From: Ignavibacteriota bacterium
GTDB taxonomy: Bacteria > Bacteroidota > Ignavibacteria > Kapaibacteriales > UBA2268
DNA length: 64,000 bases
Direction of reading: 5' to 3'
NCBI GenBank assembly: GCA_024636855.1
Contig: JAGXGG010000049.1
Location: 20,362 to 84,361, forward strand
The notes below the pieces were generated by a model that was not told the origin of the DNA, searched no databases, and saw only the letters and a list, made by a program, of their open reading frames with translations. The position numbers and the translations under genes are program-made. This document shows positions 20,190 through 28,250 of this stretch, piece after piece (the first letter of the stretch is position 1; each line of letters starts with the position of its first letter).

Positions 20190-22283
20190 CTACTTTCTGT
20201 GAACCATATATGTAATCATTTTGCCTTTTCCTTTCACTTCCATTGGCGGCAGCTCATCGAATTTGAAATTATGGTTCTGTCCATCTAATTCTCTTTTTAC
20301 ATTAGAAGATATATGAACTAATCCTGGAGTTCCAGTTGACTCCATTCTAGAAGCAGTGTTTACCGAGTCTCCCCATAAGTCGTAGGCGAATTTCATTTCC
20401 CCAATTACACCTGCCACGATTGGCCCAGACTCTATACCTACTCTTGCTTTTATATCGGTATTCATCTTGGCATTTATTTCTTTCAACACAATATGTACAT
20501 CTAAAGAGAAATTTGTAGCTCTAACAGAGTGATCAGAACACGGCTCAGGTACTCCTGCTGCTGCCATATATCCATCACCAATAGTTTTGATTTTCTCTAA
20601 ACCATACTTTACTATTAGACCATCTATTTCGTGGAACACATCATTCAACATCTGTAATACGTCCGATGCTTTTCTATCTTTTGAGTATGCAGTAAACCCA
20701 ACTAAATCTATAAATACAATGCTTGCACACTCTATATCATCAGCGATTAGTCTTTCCTTTTTCTTTAATCTGTTAGCTATTTTCAAAGGGAGAATATTTA
20801 GCAGTAACTTCTCTGATCTTTGTCTTTGTCTAAATACAATGATTGCAATAAATGCAATTCCAATAGCACCACCAATAAATGCCCAACGCTCATTCTTGGC
20901 TTGGGTTATCTCAAGATTCTGGATTTCATTTTCTCTGTTTTTAATCTCTAGTTCTTTGTCTTTTATTTCGTTTTCTCTTATAGCTTCTAAGTTAGCAATT
21001 TGAGATTGAGATTTCTCAGTAAAAACAGAGTCTTTTAGTACGACATACTCTTTGTATAATTCAAGTGATTTTGCATAGTCTCCTTTTAACATATATGAAT
21101 TAGACAAACCCAAAATAAATCTATACCGCGTATATAAATCACCTACTTCTTCTAAAATCTTGATAGCTTGACTATAGCTAGAGATAGATCTTTGTAGATT
21201 TTCTTGTTTGTTCAAACTTACCAAATTGCTAGCTTTCTTAATACCAGCTAGTATAGAGTCTTGCGATAAACTATAGTATAACTCGCCAATATTACCTAGG
21301 TTACTAGCTACTCCCGTTCTACTACCTAATTCTTCGTATATATTTATAGCTTCCTTGTAATTTTCTAATGCTTCTGTAAATTCTGATTGATATTGATGTA
21401 CAATACCTATATTAGTAAGCAGACTTGCAACCCCATATTTATTACCCAAATCATCGAATATATCAACTGATAATTCGAAATTTTGCAGAGCATTTTTAAA
21501 CTCTTCTTGGGCTAAATATACAGAACCTAAATTTGCTAATATTGAAGCTTCACCTATTTTATCTTTTAGCTCTTGTTTTATTTTGAGGGCCTTTTTATAG
21601 TAATCTATCGCTCTTTTAAAATCACTTTGATAATCATAAATCATCCCTATATTACCAAGGTTTGTAGCTATACCACTTTTATTCCCAAGTTTTTCGAACA
21701 TAGATAGCGATCTTTGATAATAATCCAAAGCATTTGCATAATCAGACTGGTTTCTATAGATAAATCCTATATTGCCCAATGTACTTGCTATTCTTTCTTT
21801 GTCTTTTAATCTTTCGAATATATCTAAAGCATTTTCATAATTCTCAATAGCTTTATCATATAATGATTGGTTCTGGTAAACTATACCAATATTTAATAAT
21901 GTCTTTCCAATTTCAAGTTTTAAATCTAATTCATCATAAGTTTCCAGTGCCTTATTAAAGTAGATTTTAGCTTTGGTAAAATCTGATTTTCCTAAAGCAT
22001 AGTTTAGACCTATTGAGACATTATTATTGGCAATGCCTTCCTCCCATTCCAATTCTTGGGCTAGTTTTACCCCTCTTTCTCCATACTTAATACCTTTATC
22101 GGGATTAGTTGCCTGGATACTAGCGGATAATCTAGCCAGAAGGCTCACCTGTGCAGTGTCCTTTTTGGCATTAGGTAAAGCATTGAGCAATGAATCTAAT
22201 TTCTCTTGTCCTTGTTTTTCTGACAAAAGAGATTGAGTAGTAAATGATAAAAAAACTATAAAAAGTAAAATTTTAAATTTCAT
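20190..22283 (-). CDS. TPR-repeat / class III adenylate cyclase, paralogue 1
   Basis: Signal peptide, then ~10 TPR units (..LGNIG.IY..Q.DY..A..YY..AL.I.E.LGDK.G.A..), a coiled coil and one TM helix (WAFIGGAIGIAFIAIIVF). Cyclase domain motifs: FIDLVGFT, KTIGDGYMAAAG, YDLWGDSVNTASRMES. The Lys + Asp pair indicates ATP specificity. Confidence 0.85.
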   Translation of the reverse strand: MKFKILLFIVFLSFTTQSLLSEKQGQEKLDSLLNALPNAKKDTAQVSLLARLSASIQATNPDKGIKYGERGVKLAQELEWEEGIANNNVSIGLNYALGKSDFTKAKIYFNKALETYDELDLKLEIGKTLLNIGIVYQNQSLYDKAIENYENALDIFERLKDKERIASTLGNIGFIYRNQSDYANALDYYQRSLSMFEKLGNKSGIATNLGNIGMIYDYQSDFKRAIDYYKKALKIKQELKDKIGEASILANLGSVYLAQEEFKNALQNFELSVDIFDDLGNKYGVASLLTNIGIVHQYQSEFTEALENYKEAINIYEELGSRTGVASNLGNIGELYYSLSQDSILAGIKKASNLVSLNKQENLQRSISSYSQAIKILEEVGDLYTRYRFILGLSNSYMLKGDYAKSLELYKEYVVLKDSVFTEKSQSQIANLEAIRENEIKDKELEIKNRENEIQNLEITQAKNERWAFIGGAIGIAFIAIIVFRQRQRSEKLLLNILPLKIANRLKKKERLIADDIECASIVFIDLVGFTAYSKDRKASDVLQMLNDVFHEIDGLIVKYGLEKIKTIGDGYMAAAGVPEPCSDHSVRATNFSLDVHIVLKEINAKMNTDIKARVGIESGPIVAGVIGEMKFAYDLWGDSVNTASRMESTGTPGLVHISSNVKRELDGQNHNFKFDELPPMEVKGKGKMITYMVHRK

Positions 22284-22291
22284 TCTTTTCC

Positions 22292-24268
22292 TTATTTAAG
22301 TAGATAAGTTAAAACCTTACCTTTTCCTTTGATTTCTACTTCGCCACGTTCTTTATACTTGATACCATAATCCTTAATCTCTTTTATAAAGGATTCAGTT
22401 ACCTGTATCTCATTTGGTAGGCCTGTACTTTCCATTCTTGATGCCATATTAACAGCATCACCCCATAAATCATAGCTGAATTTACTCTCACCAATTACTC
22501 CCGCTACCACTGGTCCATTATCTATACCAATTCTAAATAAAAGCTTATGGCCATCTGGTGTTACATAATTATGCATCAGGTCCTTTGCCTCTAGTGCAAA
22601 TCTAGCAGTTGCCAAAGCATGGTTGTCATGAGGCTCAGGTAATCCTGCTACAGCCATATAACAATCGCCTATCGGTTTTATTTTCTCTAGACCATGTTTT
22701 AGAGAGAGTATGTCAAATCTAGTGAAAATATCATTCAAAGCTGATACGATTTCCTCGGGTTCGGTACCTTTTGAATAGGTAGTAAAGCCCACTATATCTA
22801 TAAATATAATAGATACTTCATCAAATCTATCGGCTATATTTTTCTCGTTTCTCTTTAATCTTTTTGCGATTTTTTCAGGCATTATATTCAGAAGTAATTT
22901 CTCTGATTTTCGACGTTGCATGAATATAATAACTAGAAGAATCACAACTGCTGCCAAACCTAGAAACAAAGCTGTTTGTTCATTTACTTTTCTAAGTAAT
23001 TCTAAATCTTTTAGTTTTAACTCTTTTTCTTTTATTTCATTTTCTTTTTTTGCTTCTAGGTTGGCTATTTCGGTGGTTTTCTCTACACTGAATATAGAAT
23101 CTTTTAGCTTTGCCCATTCTGTTTGATATATATAGGCATTTTCGTAGTTTCCTATTGACTCATTAGCTTTATCTAATGTACTGTAAACTTCCATCAACTG
23201 TCTTTTATCACCAATTTCAAGAGAGATATCTTTTGACTTTTGAGCATATTCTATTGATTTATTTAGATTATATATTTTATCTAAACTAAAACTGGTATTT
23301 TTCAGTTTTAAATCTTGGATTACACTATCTTGTGATAATATATAGTGTACTGCCGCCAGATTCCCTAAATTCACGGCTATACCACTTTTGCTTCCTATTT
23401 CTTCATTCAACTTTAGAGCTCGATTATAATACTCATAAGCTTTCTCATAATCTAGTGTTTCCCAGTATAATATGCCTATATTCCCAAGGCGAATGGCAAT
23501 ACTTTTTATATTACCTAATTCTTCATCTATTTCTAAGGCTCTTTCGTAATATTCAAGAGCTTTCTCATAATTCTTTAAAAAAGTATAATTCCAAGCAATA
23601 TTACCTAATTGTTTTGATATTTTATCTTTATCGTTTAGTCTTTCATAAATTTCTAAAGATTTTCTGTTGAACTTTAACGCTTTTTCATAGTCTTTCAGAT
23701 ATGTATATACTATACCTATGTTTCCATTTTGTCTGGCTATACTCGCTTCTATACCATCTTTCTCCGCTATTTTTAGTGCTTGTTGATAGTAGTCCAATGC
23801 AGCCGTAAAATTTGACTGATTCATACTAGCAATACCAAGATTTCCTAATTGTTGAGATACTCCACTCTTATCTCCTAATTCTTTGTAAATAGCTAGTGAC
23901 TTACCAAAATAATTAACAGCCTCGTTATTATTACTTTTTATAGAATTGTTTACACCTAAGCTATTGTAAGCCATTGCTTTCCCCTTTTTCCAACCTATCT
24001 TATCGGTTAGTTTGGAAGCTATAATTGCATATTTTATACCTGAATCTGGGTCGATAGTGTAGAAATTCATTGATAATGAACAAAGTATGTTAACTTTGTT
24101 TGTATCATCAATTGCTTTGGGTAATTTAGACTTTAGAGAATCAATAATTTCTGCGCTTTTGTTAGAAGGGACTAAAGGTATTACTATTAACAATAATAAA
24201 ACTAATGAAAGATATAGGGAATTTCTATTTATCACTGTCTTTACCCAACTTTTTATTTCCAATAACAT
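22292..24268 (-). CDS. TPR-repeat / class III adenylate cyclase, paralogue 2
   Basis: Same architecture as paralogue 1. Motifs: FIDIVGFT, KPIGDCYMAVAG, YDLWGDAVNMASRMES. Confidence 0.85.
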   Translation of the reverse strand: MLLEIKSWVKTVINRNSLYLSLVLLLLIVIPLVPSNKSAEIIDSLKSKLPKAIDDTNKVNILCSLSMNFYTIDPDSGIKYAIIASKLTDKIGWKKGKAMAYNSLGVNNSIKSNNNEAVNYFGKSLAIYKELGDKSGVSQQLGNLGIASMNQSNFTAALDYYQQALKIAEKDGIEASIARQNGNIGIVYTYLKDYEKALKFNRKSLEIYERLNDKDKISKQLGNIAWNYTFLKNYEKALEYYERALEIDEELGNIKSIAIRLGNIGILYWETLDYEKAYEYYNRALKLNEEIGSKSGIAVNLGNLAAVHYILSQDSVIQDLKLKNTSFSLDKIYNLNKSIEYAQKSKDISLEIGDKRQLMEVYSTLDKANESIGNYENAYIYQTEWAKLKDSIFSVEKTTEIANLEAKKENEIKEKELKLKDLELLRKVNEQTALFLGLAAVVILLVIIFMQRRKSEKLLLNIMPEKIAKRLKRNEKNIADRFDEVSIIFIDIVGFTTYSKGTEPEEIVSALNDIFTRFDILSLKHGLEKIKPIGDCYMAVAGLPEPHDNHALATARFALEAKDLMHNYVTPDGHKLLFRIGIDNGPVVAGVIGESKFSYDLWGDAVNMASRMESTGLPNEIQVTESFIKEIKDYGIKYKERGEVEIKGKGKVLTYLLK

Positions 24269-26210
24269 GATCTTTGAGTAAATAAGTTTTTACTATACCT
24301 TTACCTTTTATGTTAATTTCGCCTCTTTCTTCGCAAGTTATATTATAACTTTGCAGACTGTTTGCAAAATTCTCAGTAACTTGTATTTCGTTAGGTAGTC
24401 CAGTACTTTCCATTCTAGAAGCAGTATTTACGGCATCACCCCATAAATCATAACTGAACTTACGTTCGCCTATTACTCCAGCAACTACTGGTCCAGCATC
24501 GATTCCTATTCTGAAATGAAGTTTATGCCCATCATTAGTTGTATAATCTTGCATCAATCTTTGAGCCTGAAGAGCAAATTCGGCAGTTGATAATATTGGT
24601 TGTGGGTGTGGTTCAGGTAAACCAGCTGCAGCCATATAACAATCACCAATAGTTTTTATTTTCTCTAGACCATATTCTTTGGTCAAATTATCAAACTTTG
24701 TAAATATTTCGTTAAGTACGGAAACTACTTTCACTGGGTCTGTATCATTGGAGTAGCTTGTAAAGCCGACTATATCCAAAAATATTATTGCAGTATTCTC
24801 AAACCTATCAGCAATTCTTTTTTCGTTATTTTTTAATCTTTTTGCTATTTTAGCAGGTAAGATATTCAGAAGTAATTTCTCTGATTTTCTTCTCTCGAAG
24901 AATACTAACAAGAGCATTATAGCTCCTCCACCGAACCCAAGTATTAATACATATTGCTCATTATACTTACGTGATAATTCTAAATCTCTCAACTTGATTT
25001 CTTTTTCATTTATCTCACCTTGCTTTATCGCCTCTAGTTTAGCTATTTCCTTAGTCTTTTGAACACTAAAAATAGAATCTCTAAGCTCTATCCATTCCCT
25101 TTGATATAAATACGCTTTCTTAAAGTTACCTTTCATTGCATAGGCCTTTTCTAAAAAGCCATAAAACTCTCTGAGCATATCTTTAGAACCAATTGATTCA
25201 GCTATATGAGTAGCTTTTTCAGAGTATTCTATTGATTTTCCCAAGTTATAATCTTTATCCAGAGAGATCGTACTGTTTCTTTCTTTTAGCTTAGTTACTA
25301 TAGAGTCTAGAGTTAGATTGAAATATAATCCACCCAAATTGCCCATTATAGCTGCACTTCCAAATTTATTTCCGATTTCTTCATTTATATTAAGTGCTTT
25401 CTCATAATTGACTAATGCTAATTGATAATCTGAAAGATAATTATAAGTATTTGCCATATTACCGAGGTTTGTCGCTATACCGAATTTATTACCAAATAAC
25501 TCCCATAGTTCAAGTGCTTTACTAAAATTAACTAATGCTTTATCATATTGCTTTGAATCTAGATATGTAGTTCCCATATTACCAAGAATGGTAGCTATTC
25601 CACGTCTGTTATTATTTGTTTCATGTATTTTTAAAGCTTTTTTGTAATATTTTAAAGCACTATCAAAGTTCTTTAGATCACTATATATATTACCAATATT
25701 CCCTTGGTTATCAGCTTCGCCTTCTTTGTCACCTATTATCATATCAATCTTGAGAGCTTTCTGATAGTAATTCAATGCTAGAGAATAGCTTGATAAATTA
25801 TAATAAATATTCCCGATGTTTGTAAAGTTTTTAGCAATCTCTAGTGAGTCTTTACTCTCTTGATTTAGTTTCAAAGATTTTTGGAAGTAATCTAAGGCTT
25901 CATCAAAATTTCCCAACGCATATAAATTCCCACCAATTGAATTATAGGACTTAGCGATACCTTCTTTCCAATCAAGTTTTTTTGCTAAGGTAAGCGATTG
26001 ATTTCCATATTTAACACCTAACTCGGGGTCTATTGAGTTATATTGGAAAGACATCATATGAAGCAAGGATACTTTATTCGTATCTTCAAGAGCAGTTTTT
26101 AATTTTTCTTTCAGTAGTTCTAACTTTGCTTGCTCTCTATTCTGTGATATGAGAGAACACGGAATTATAGCAATAGCTAAACAAAATACTATGAGAAGTG
26201 AATATCTCAA
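24225..26210 (-). CDS. TPR-repeat / class III adenylate cyclase, paralogue 3
   Basis: Same architecture as paralogue 1. Motifs: FLDIVGFT, KTIGDCYMAAAG, YDLWGDAVNTASRMES. Its 3' end overlaps the longest ORF of paralogue 2 by 44 nt. Confidence 0.85.
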   Translation of the reverse strand: MRYSLLIVFCLAIAIIPCSLISQNREQAKLELLKEKLKTALEDTNKVSLLHMMSFQYNSIDPELGVKYGNQSLTLAKKLDWKEGIAKSYNSIGGNLYALGNFDEALDYFQKSLKLNQESKDSLEIAKNFTNIGNIYYNLSSYSLALNYYQKALKIDMIIGDKEGEADNQGNIGNIYSDLKNFDSALKYYKKALKIHETNNNRRGIATILGNMGTTYLDSKQYDKALVNFSKALELWELFGNKFGIATNLGNMANTYNYLSDYQLALVNYEKALNINEEIGNKFGSAAIMGNLGGLYFNLTLDSIVTKLKERNSTISLDKDYNLGKSIEYSEKATHIAESIGSKDMLREFYGFLEKAYAMKGNFKKAYLYQREWIELRDSIFSVQKTKEIAKLEAIKQGEINEKEIKLRDLELSRKYNEQYVLILGFGGGAIMLLLVFFERRKSEKLLLNILPAKIAKRLKNNEKRIADRFENTAIIFLDIVGFTSYSNDTDPVKVVSVLNEIFTKFDNLTKEYGLEKIKTIGDCYMAAAGLPEPHPQPILSTAEFALQAQRLMQDYTTNDGHKLHFRIGIDAGPVVAGVIGERKFSYDLWGDAVNTASRMESTGLPNEIQVTENFANSLQSYNITCEERGEINIKGKGIVKTYLLKDHVIGNKKLGKDSDK

Positions 26211-27182: not shown

Positions 27183-27258
27183 GAAGTGTAGAGACGTATT
27201 GAATATGTATCAAGAGTCAAACACAATTACAAGATAATTGAGTTTATTAACATTTTCA

Positions 27259-27290
27259 TTTGCATTATATTCATAATTCTCATATATTTG
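27259..27290 (+). promoter_or_regulatory. Bacteroidetes-type promoter (TTTG -33 / TATATTTG -7) of the S24 pair
   Basis: TTTG at 27259-27262, a 20-nt spacer, then TATATTTG at 27283-27290. The longest-ORF start (27288) lies inside the -7 box, which favours the ATG at 27333. Confidence 0.45.
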
Positions 27291-27332
27291 AGACAGCATA
27301 AAGGAAGTTTTCCACAATTCTCAGGTTTTACA

Positions 27333-27761
27333 ATGCAACAATTCGAAGTAATTGGGTTTTTACCAAAATCCGATAGAAAGATTCCGTTCTTTACTATGTC
27401 CGTAGCGGCTGGTATTCCTATTCCTGTCGAGGGGGATGTTGACAGAGAAGTAGATTTGAACGAATTCCTAGTAGAACATCCAGCAGCGACTTTTTTCGTG
27501 AAAGTAAAAGGCGATATGCTCAAATCAGTAGGAATATCTGATAACGATATTCTTATAATAGATACGTCTATTGACCCTACAGATGGCAAGTTCGTCATAG
27601 CTTCTGTTAATGATGATTTGGCAGTTCGGTTCTATCGTGAGATAGATGGTGATAGATTCTTAGAGTCTCACTTAGGTCAGTTTTTACCTTTGGACGAGAA
27701 TAAGTCATTGATAGATTTCCAGATACTCGGAACAGTAACAAAAGTGATTCATTCTCTCTAA
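27333..27761 (+). CDS. UmuD-like S24-fold protein A: catalytic dyad replaced (Ser->Met, Lys->Arg), Ala-Gly cleavage site retained, no HTH domain
   Basis: Aligns gap-free with E. coli UmuD from the cleavage Gly to the Lys. VAA|GIPIP.. matches UmuD VQC|GFPSP. FVKVKGDML matches FVKASGDSM, putting Met at the nucleophile position. DLAVRFY matches EFTVKKL, putting Arg at the general-base position. Confidence 0.75.
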   Translation: MQQFEVIGFLPKSDRKIPFFTMSVAAGIPIPVEGDVDREVDLNEFLVEHPAATFFVKVKGDMLKSVGISDNDILIIDTSIDPTDGKFVIASVNDDLAVRFYREIDGDRFLESHLGQFLPLDENKSLIDFQILGTVTKVIHSL

Positions 27762-27776
27762 AACGGCATAGCAATT

Positions 27777-27805
27777 GTTGGACTCAATCAAACAGTAAGT
27801 CCAAC
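27777..27805 (+). other. 8-bp stem hairpin between the two S24 genes
   Basis: GTTGGACT (27777-27784) / AGTCCAAC (27798-27805) with a 13-nt loop and no T-tract. Confidence 0.4.
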
Positions 27806-27821
27806 GAAATAGAAAAAGAAT

Positions 27822-28250
27822 ATGTATAGACTAAGAGCAGACAAATATGGTAACCCTAAACAAGGGTTCACATTCGAAGCACCGCTATTGCCAGCAAGCA
27901 TACAGCGTGGTTCGGGCATGTTGCAATCAGTAGAGACATCTATTGACTTAGGCAACTTATTGCTCACAGGAAGCAAAGACGTGTATATGGCTCGAGTTAC
28001 TGGCGACAGTATGATAGATGAGAATATATTCACTGGGGATATTCTAATAGTAGATGCCAAAACTGAGCCCAAAGATGGACAGATAGTAGTTGCCTCGCTT
28101 GACGGTGAAATGACAGTAAAGAAACTCCGCCGCAAAGATGGCAAAATATACCTAGTCTCTGCCAACCAAAAATACTTACCAATAGAAATAACTGGATATT
28201 GCAAATTCGAAATACAAGGCGTAGTAAAGCATATTATTCACGAGGTGTAG
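27822..28250 (+). CDS. UmuD-like S24 peptidase B: intact Ser/Lys dyad, no canonical Ala-Gly/Cys-Gly site, no HTH domain
   Basis: VTGDSMIDENIFTGDILIVD, with Lys exactly 37 residues after the Ser (EMTVKKL) as in UmuD. The N-terminal 40 aa contain only YG, QG, RG and SG dipeptides. Confidence 0.8.
   Translation: MYRLRADKYGNPKQGFTFEAPLLPASIQRGSGMLQSVETSIDLGNLLLTGSKDVYMARVTGDSMIDENIFTGDILIVDAKTEPKDGQIVVASLDGEMTVKKLRRKDGKIYLVSANQKYLPIEITGYCKFEIQGVVKHIIHEV

Follow-up and report, generated by a model that had tools for sequence, protein, structure and literature searches.

Tandem UmuD-like S24 proteins that apparently divide the two roles of a self-cleaving dimer between two genes

Introduction

UmuD is the textbook example of a protease that also serves as its own substrate. 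For decades it has been debated whether its cleavage occurs in cis or in trans and why DNA polymerase V (Pol V) needs a dimer of it. Here we describe a tandem gene pair from an Ignavibacteriota bacterium whose products are apparently, judging from their sequences, paralogous UmuD-type proteins that divide the two roles of a self-cleaving dimer. The pair lies in a 64,000-nucleotide stretch of contig JAGXGG010000049.1 (assembly GCA_024636855.1, positions 20,362 to 84,361 of the forward strand); we call this whole stretch the window, number it from its first nucleotide, and refer to the substrate-type gene as A and to the enzyme-type gene as B. A full-text literature search found no description of a natural tandem or fused enzyme/substrate pair of S24 proteins, in agreement with a preliminary description of this DNA, which had named no known split S24 system.

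In Escherichia coli UmuD, a single gene supplies the scissile bond (Cys24-Gly25), the nucleophile (Ser60) and the general base (Lys97). Cleavage is intermolecular, within a dimer bound asymmetrically on the activated RecA filament (RecA*) (PMC9926225). Cryo-electron microscopy resolved an asymmetric UmuD2 dimer on RecA* (PMC9926225). Its inside protomer contributes Ser60/Lys97, a pocket of hydrophobic residues (Y52, F94) that takes up RecA loop L2, and acidic residues (D91, E93) that form a patch. From the outside protomer come F18 and the region around the cleavage site (L21, Q23, F26, P29); RecA holds this region and the inside protomer cuts it (PMC9926225). The Pol V model is likewise asymmetric, with one UmuD' inserting its arm into UmuC and the other binding the UmuC tail (PMC12926913). 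When UmuD S60A was combined with a non-cleavable UmuD truncation, heterodimers formed and trans cleavage was efficient (PMC5342242).

The products of A and B resemble E. coli UmuD/UmuD' (1UMU, 1AY9, 8GMT) in fold, in size and in lacking a helix-turn-helix (HTH) domain, and A also has an N-terminal arm with a scissile bond. Unlike UmuD, which unites enzyme and substrate in one gene, the pair places the two roles on two genes, has no adjacent umuC and scores below the NCBIfam cut-off for UmuD. The pair also resembles the engineered combination of UmuD S60A with non-cleavable UmuD, in which one subunit is only cut and the other only cuts, in trans (McDonald et al. 1998, as cited in PMC9926225; PMC5342242). 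Those heterodimers, however, were made in the laboratory from point mutants or truncations of a single gene, whereas A and B are natural, anciently diverged (32% identity) and under selection. LexA, phage CI, the non-canonical LexA of Bacteroidetes (PMC8565304) and UmuDAb of Acinetobacter share with the pair the S24 domain, the Ala-Gly site and the Ser-Lys dyad, with a RecA* response on their side. By contrast, A and B lack the N-terminal DNA-binding domain that is evident in the LexA of locus L024 and the CI-like protein of locus L074 among the loci compared here, and the trans cleavage that we propose for A and B differs from that of LexA, which is intramolecular (PMC9926225).

Results

The cleavage site and the catalytic dyad each occur once in the pair

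Gene A (27333-27761, + strand) and gene B (27822-28250, + strand) each encode a UmuD-like S24 protein of 142 amino acids (aa), as established from open reading frames (ORFs), Pfam, NCBIfam, alignments to PDB entries and profiles, and Foldseek. The genes lie on one strand and in one frame with 60 nt between them, and they are separate ORFs with two stop codons intervening. A aligned without gaps to UmuD residues 15-96. It retains the site VAA/GIPIP (Ala26-Gly27, codons at 27408-27413, + strand), and it carries Met62 (27516-27518, + strand; motif GDML) in place of Ser60 and Arg99 (27627-27629, + strand; motif AVRFY) in place of Lys97. The distance from the site Gly to the nucleophile position is 35 residues, as in UmuD, and that from the nucleophile to the base position is 37 residues in UmuD, A and B alike. 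B retains GDSM with Ser63 (28008-28010, + strand) and, 37 residues on, Lys100 (28119-28121, + strand). Its N-terminal arm, which bears a conserved [YF]xFEAP motif (within 27822-28250, + strand), has IQR-GSG, and thus Arg29-Gly30, at the site position and contains neither Ala-Gly nor Cys-Gly. Within the pair, the scissile bond is therefore present in A only and the Ser-Lys dyad in B only. These residue assignments bear out those of the preliminary description. Its statement that both proteins align gap-free with UmuD held for A; for B, gap-free alignment began only at about Val37, the arm being about two residues shorter.

A profile-profile alignment of the A and B families gave a register identical to that of the single-sequence alignments, and profile alignments, including that to Peptidase_S24 which the preliminary description had proposed, placed no other Ser or Lys of A in the catalytic columns. 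We found no alternative conserved Ser/Thr/Cys-Lys pair specific to A. Non-canonical catalytic residues in A were considered and rejected, as its conserved polar residues (His49, Thr53, Ser112, His140) are common to UmuD and B.

Both products matched Pfam Peptidase_S24 (PF00717) above the cut-off of 23.3 bits (A, 59.7 bits; B, 100 bits). Because this was the sole Pfam match, neither protein has a DNA-binding domain by this search, and a length of 142 aa leaves no room for a winged HTH or an XRE-type HTH. Neither protein is thus a LexA- or CI-type repressor, as already read in the preliminary description; both have instead the architecture of UmuD (about 140 aa, HTH-less, an N-terminal arm and a catalytic core). 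In NCBIfam, the UmuD subfamily (NF007621) ranked first and LexA second for both proteins, with NF007621 scores (A, 91.2 bits; B, 101.2 bits) under the curated cut-off of 110 bits. The closest solved relative of both was E. coli UmuD/UmuD' (phmmer E of about 1e-18). AlphaFold monomer models (pLDDT of 70 for A and 75 for B) gave 1UMU (UmuD') and 8GMT (RecA-bound UmuD) as the best Foldseek matches for both proteins, and the low model confidence of A residues 4-39 is that expected of a flexible arm. A and B are thus UmuD-like members of the S24 superfamily, and neither alone qualifies as UmuD or as a self-cleaving S24 peptidase, because each lacks one half of the machinery, scores below the cut-off and has no umuC.

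A defence-system or phage reading was rejected: PADLOC defence-system profiles matched neither A nor B nor the two genes downstream, and PHROGs returned the annotation 'UmuD-like' and nothing further.

The complementary pattern recurs in two linked families

Searches with A and with B recovered two distinct families of HTH-less proteins of about 140 aa from Kapaibacteria, Ignavibacteria, Chlorobiota (including Chloroherpeton metagenome-assembled genomes [MAGs]) and unclassified MAGs of the Fibrobacterota-Chlorobiota-Bacteroidota (FCB) group. Carriers of the pair include MAGs of Chloroherpeton thalassium and the complete Kapaibacteria chromosomes OY762428.1, OY761611.1, JAVSMQ010000001.1 and OW818654.1. 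We classed all S24 ORFs of 261 loci with three hidden Markov models, one each for A-type, B-type and canonical UmuD proteins. These classes separated cleanly, and each was monophyletic on a neighbour-joining (NJ) tree. Counting unique sequences, Ala-Gly was present in 81 out of 81 A, 14 out of 82 B and 32 out of 32 canonical UmuD sequences. The catalytic Ser was present in 22, 82 and 32 of them, the Lys in 65 (Arg in the other 16), 82 and 32, and both residues together in 18, 82 and 32, respectively. Parsimony on the NJ tree required at least 11 Ser/non-Ser changes and at least seven changes at the Lys position within A, and at least six Ala-Gly changes within B; constraint has therefore been relaxed many times on exactly complementary halves. 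The distance from site to core is fixed in A. In B, arm length varies, and some members carry an insertion of 80-90 residues. As judged from the sequences, recurrence of the pattern in about 80 independent homologous pairs goes far beyond what chance would produce.

The reciprocal loss noted in the preliminary description, on which its suggestion of an obligate heterodimer rested, is complete in the clade of the window. Elsewhere it is not, as all the A proteins that keep Ser and Lys (18/81) and all the B proteins that keep Ala-Gly (14/82) lie outside that clade.

B lies directly downstream of A for 72 of the 81 unique A sequences, and five more are cut by contig ends, in line with the expectation that the two types would be neighbours in related FCB genomes. 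The median gap between A and B is 32 nt, and some pairs overlap. The remaining four A genes (L046, L052, L056 and L064) have no adjacent B; a B-seeded scan found a lone B on another contig of the same assemblies (CAYXMM01, CBFIFP01, JAUIIX01 and JAJRPT01). No genome in the sample examined had A or B alone.

The loss of both catalytic residues from the A of the window is what might be expected if A were a duplicate of B or umuD that is decaying into a pseudogene. The ratio of nonsynonymous to synonymous substitution rates (omega) in the window's clade was nevertheless 0.01-0.06 for A, as low as that for B (0.006-0.08), indicating strong purifying selection on both. Since A in this clade lacks both catalytic residues, it is not a decaying copy. 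The 81 distinct A sequences, which reach down to about 45% identity, are all intact; their arm and core are highly conserved, with column identity averaging 62%. We regard decay as extremely improbable and refuted by omega and by this conservation; neutral evolution of A was among the conditions that the preliminary description had named as refuting its reading.

MAGs carrying the pair (L032-L080, L193-L246) are often labelled 'uncultured Hyphomicrobiales', and others Chloroflexota, Desulfobulbaceae or Patescibacteria. These labels are probably wrong, because the A and B genes and their neighbours look like those of Kapaibacteria or Ignavibacteria.

Fused relatives join a substrate-type to an enzyme-type domain

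A search with the A-family profile gave 12,883 matches at E<=1e-3. Among the best 150, which we examined for tandem S24 domains, at least 15 were single-chain proteins of 246-301 aa with two S24 domains (P0243-P0249, P0252, P0253, P0262, P0277, P0288, P0296, P0329 and P0368; loci L263-L266). In these 15, the first domain has a [AC]G-FPSP site in 14, the Ser in about five, the Lys in six and both residues in two or three. The second domain starts past the site region and has Ser and Lys in all 15.

These proteins (for example, P0245, P0249 and P0253) resemble A and B in having the site in a first unit with a mostly degenerate Ser/Lys pair and the dyad without a site in the second. They differ in being covalent fusions from an independent duplication, as shown by both domains being of canonical UmuD type, and in lying on mobile-element-like contigs next to umuC. 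In each of the three whose flanking DNA was long enough, the gene that follows directly encodes a UmuC-type polymerase (IMS+IMS_C+DUF4113), and the contigs carry relaxase, Fic or methylase genes. The tandem proteins show that one site and one dyad per dimer suffice for a UmuC-linked accessory, an arrangement that agrees with the asymmetric Pol V model (PMC12926913). By analogy, this natural tethering of a substrate-type to an enzyme-type domain argues for physical pairing of A and B.

The two families match the two protomers of RecA*-bound UmuD

A column-wise comparison with the contacts seen in RecA*-bound UmuD showed that the B family keeps the inside set nearly invariant (Y/F52, S60, M61, G92, E93, V96 and K97) and that the A family keeps the outside set (P16, F/Y18, V22, A24, G25, P27 and P29), with each family degenerate in the protomer contacts of the other. 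On the strength of these sequence comparisons, we consider it reasonably likely that the two proteins pair as an A·B heterodimer in which A is cut in trans by B. The preliminary description had suggested this reading, and the refuting conditions that it named came out in favour of the reading wherever they were examined. In the mechanism that we propose, A and B would form this heterodimer with B as the protease protomer, providing Ser63/Lys100 and a docking surface for the activated RecA filament, and A as the substrate protomer, its N-terminal arm lying across the active site of B. B would then cut A in trans between Ala26 and Gly27, most likely on RecA*. The product, A'·B, would have one UmuD'-like free arm (GIPIPVEGDVD...) and the permanently intact arm of B.

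It is also conceivable, if unlikely, that no heterodimer forms: B would act alone as a non-cleavable homodimer, and A would be a dead regulatory paralogue, such as a RecA* decoy or competitor, whose Ala-Gly arm serves for binding. The degeneracy of the enzyme-side RecA contacts of A and the clade with unlinked A and B would fit such an arrangement, as would the stand-alone S24 genes of Bacteroidota in which both catalytic residues are replaced. On the other hand, Ala-Gly is as strict in A (81/81, with invariant core spacing) as in self-cleaving UmuD (32/32), where binding alone would allow more variation; A and B co-occur in all genomes examined; and the fused proteins join precisely a substrate-type to an enzyme-type domain. 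The Bacteroidota genes just mentioned (L022, 7968-8321, 117 aa; L021, 1142-1570) encode an arm-less S24 domain with GDAM and VRR and no cleavage site, which looks like a pre-truncated, dead UmuD'-like protein; that of L022 adjoins a radical-SAM gene.

A might instead be cut by an agent other than B, be it a LexA- or CI-like S24 repressor, another protease or A itself through non-canonical residues. Candidates for such a repressor exist, since CI-like genes with an HTH and an S24 domain lie 1.2-1.5 kb from A in L074 and L005/L052 and Ignavibacteria have a canonical LexA (L024). LexA and CI, however, cleave themselves intramolecularly (PMC9926225), A has no conserved Ser/Thr/Cys-Lys pair of its own, and A is linked to B almost everywhere but to CI-like genes only sporadically. 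We therefore consider a different cutter very unlikely. The CI-like genes, with an XRE-type HTH (L074, 8115-9105; L005, 7897-8563, - strand), are each split into two overlapping ORFs through a frameshift or an assembly error, and the N-terminal piece in L005 has an Ala-Gly at its end. In L024 (7530-9851), from an Ignavibacteria MAG, lexA is preceded by two boxes of the CTGT-N8-ACAG type and followed by a Y-family polymerase gene.

Possible roles of the cleaved pair

Once B had cut A, the product A'·B would act like UmuD'/UmuD, assisting or managing a Y-family polymerase or a replisome component encoded elsewhere; alternatively, it might serve as a ClpXP-timed switch. Tentatively, the pair could be a natural two-gene S24 switch uncoupled from UmuC, in which a RecA*-triggered cut of A by B would yield an asymmetric A'·B that controls another target, which could be DinB/Pol IV, the replisome or, by way of the intact arm of B, its own ClpXP-timed removal.

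At about the same tentative level stands the possibility that A and B are a Pol V accessory in two pieces, which does the job of UmuD2 for a distal umuC-type polymerase, the split being a structural curiosity that brings no new function. This is compatible with trans cleavage and competes only with the idea of a pair working without UmuC. The fused proteins, with the same reciprocal pattern, have umuC immediately after them, which makes a distal polymerase partner of A and B plausible, and the post-cleavage arm of A (G-I-P-I-P-V-x-G-D-V-D-x-x-V-D-L-N) is close to the UmuD' arm that inserts into UmuC in the Pol V model. By contrast, we found no umuC within 6-8 kb of any A/B pair, compared with 18 out of about 22 canonical umuD loci that have one, and no canonical umuD-umuC from Kapaibacteria or Ignavibacteria among the related loci, in a scan biased to A-like patterns. 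The only adjacent Y-family genes are of DinB type: in two Kapaibacteria/Ignavibacteria loci, a convergent gene of this type directly follows B and lacks the C-terminal tail domain of UmuC.

Several observations weigh against trans cleavage in a heterodimer and against the switch that might follow from it. With the dyad kept in some A proteins and the site in some B proteins, action of a single protein is possible in some lineages, and in one clade the two genes are unlinked. Apart from the two loci with a DinB-type gene, a partner polymerase adjoins none of the approximately 80 loci, and the function of A'·B is for that reason a guess. Neither CTGT-N8-ACAG nor CTAA-N5-TTAG occurs upstream of any A in the family loci; lacking such an SOS-type operator, induction by DNA damage is unsupported. 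Finally, a hairpin between the two genes, described below, could lead to an unequal A:B ratio.

Genomic surroundings

A tblastn search of the window found no Y-family polymerase gene, and the window contains no third S24 gene. B is followed by two hydrophobic ORFs that have no Pfam match and are poorly conserved; the preliminary description had likewise noted two membrane-protein genes here and no Y-family gene. Beyond them lie genes for trigger factor, peroxiredoxin and topoisomerase I. A third gene in the module was considered and rejected, because the genes after B vary among loci and are not homologous. Upstream of A is a short-chain dehydrogenase/reductase gene, and farther upstream (20190-26210, - strand) are three tandem paralogues with tetratricopeptide repeats and a class III adenylate/guanylate cyclase domain. 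A shares 99% identity with proteins of Kapaibacterium/Ignavibacteriae MAGs.

Clustering of the neighbours in 50 loci showed two recurrent genes, both upstream of A, encoding RNase HI (19/50) and an AmiA-like protein (13/50). The RNase HI gene lies directly upstream of A on the opposite strand, in divergent orientation (L007, L008 and 17 others), with the AmiA-like gene beyond it in 13. These neighbours look like ancestral synteny and give no functional clue. Because flanking genes otherwise vary between lineages and RNase HI is the sole recurrent adjoining neighbour, A and B form a self-contained chromosomal module.

Antisense ORFs cross A (27227-27598, - strand, 123 aa) and B (27788-28204, - strand, 138 aa), and an antisense ORF of a similar kind clusters in nine loci. 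They are probably a by-product of codon composition and not real genes.

Promoter, leader and intercistronic elements

Ahead of the pair, reading of the sequence revealed promoter-like elements of the Bacteroidota type (27259-27290, + strand): TTTG (27259-27262), 20 nt and TATATTTG (27283-27290). We take TTTG-N20-TATATTTG to be a putative promoter, going by the known Bacteroidetes -33/-7 consensus. Both elements, already pointed out in the preliminary description, are conserved in close relatives (88-99% protein identity), and a scan of this region with the sigma-70 consensus did no better than with shuffled sequences.

The conserved 5' leader AGCATAAAGGAAGTTTTCCACAATTCT (27295-27321, + strand) contains the palindrome or hairpin GGAAGTTTTCC (27303-27313). 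The leader is identical in both subclades of the window's clade despite saturated synonymous sites. GGAAGTTTTCC agrees with GGA-N5-TCC, a motif that belongs to non-canonical LexA in Bacteroidetes (PMC8565304); the pattern is confined to the window's clade (9/61 loci), and in the L014 relative one arm of the palindrome is mutated. The palindrome may be an operator or, equally, an RNA hairpin. Rfam had no family matching the window or six related leaders.

Between A and B is a stem-loop (27775-27807, + strand) with a 10-bp stem and a 13-nt loop and no T-run after it (RNAfold, -11.6 kcal/mol). A role in setting the B:A ratio or the stability of the mRNA is conceivable. At the corresponding position, the L001/L018/L020 subclade has a hairpin whose stem differs in sequence, a compensatory replacement.

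A run of five to seven G residues (core GGGGGGA) lies upstream of A in 40 out of 60 loci (L004-L082) and is absent from the window's clade. It is found 4-135 nt before the A start (for example, in L033, L047, L076 and L077), against 0.18 such runs per kb and strand in the background. Across 50 loci, 34 intergenic G/C runs lay within 150 nt upstream of any ORF, 29 of them upstream of A. In many cases the G run pairs with a CU-rich tract ahead of it to give a small hairpin, and in some a short upstream ORF comes after the run; the run is not in Rfam, and it may be a Shine-Dalgarno-like or regulatory leader element.

Discussion

In A and B, and independently in the tandem-S24 proteins, evolution appears to have retained, in each dimer, a single active site and a single cleavable arm. 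Together, the two cases offer comparative evidence that trans cleavage is the physiologically relevant mode and that one cleaved arm is enough. The pair also suggests that the functions of a self-acting enzyme can be shared out between two specialised genes. As an asymmetric pair supplied by nature, it could help biochemists to trap intermediates bound to RecA*. It further suggests that a little-studied section of the FCB group has a DNA-damage module without linkage to umuC. If the proposed two-gene switch is real, it would be a DNA-damage-responsive polymerase manager of the Kapaibacteria/Ignavibacteria/Chlorobi lineage.

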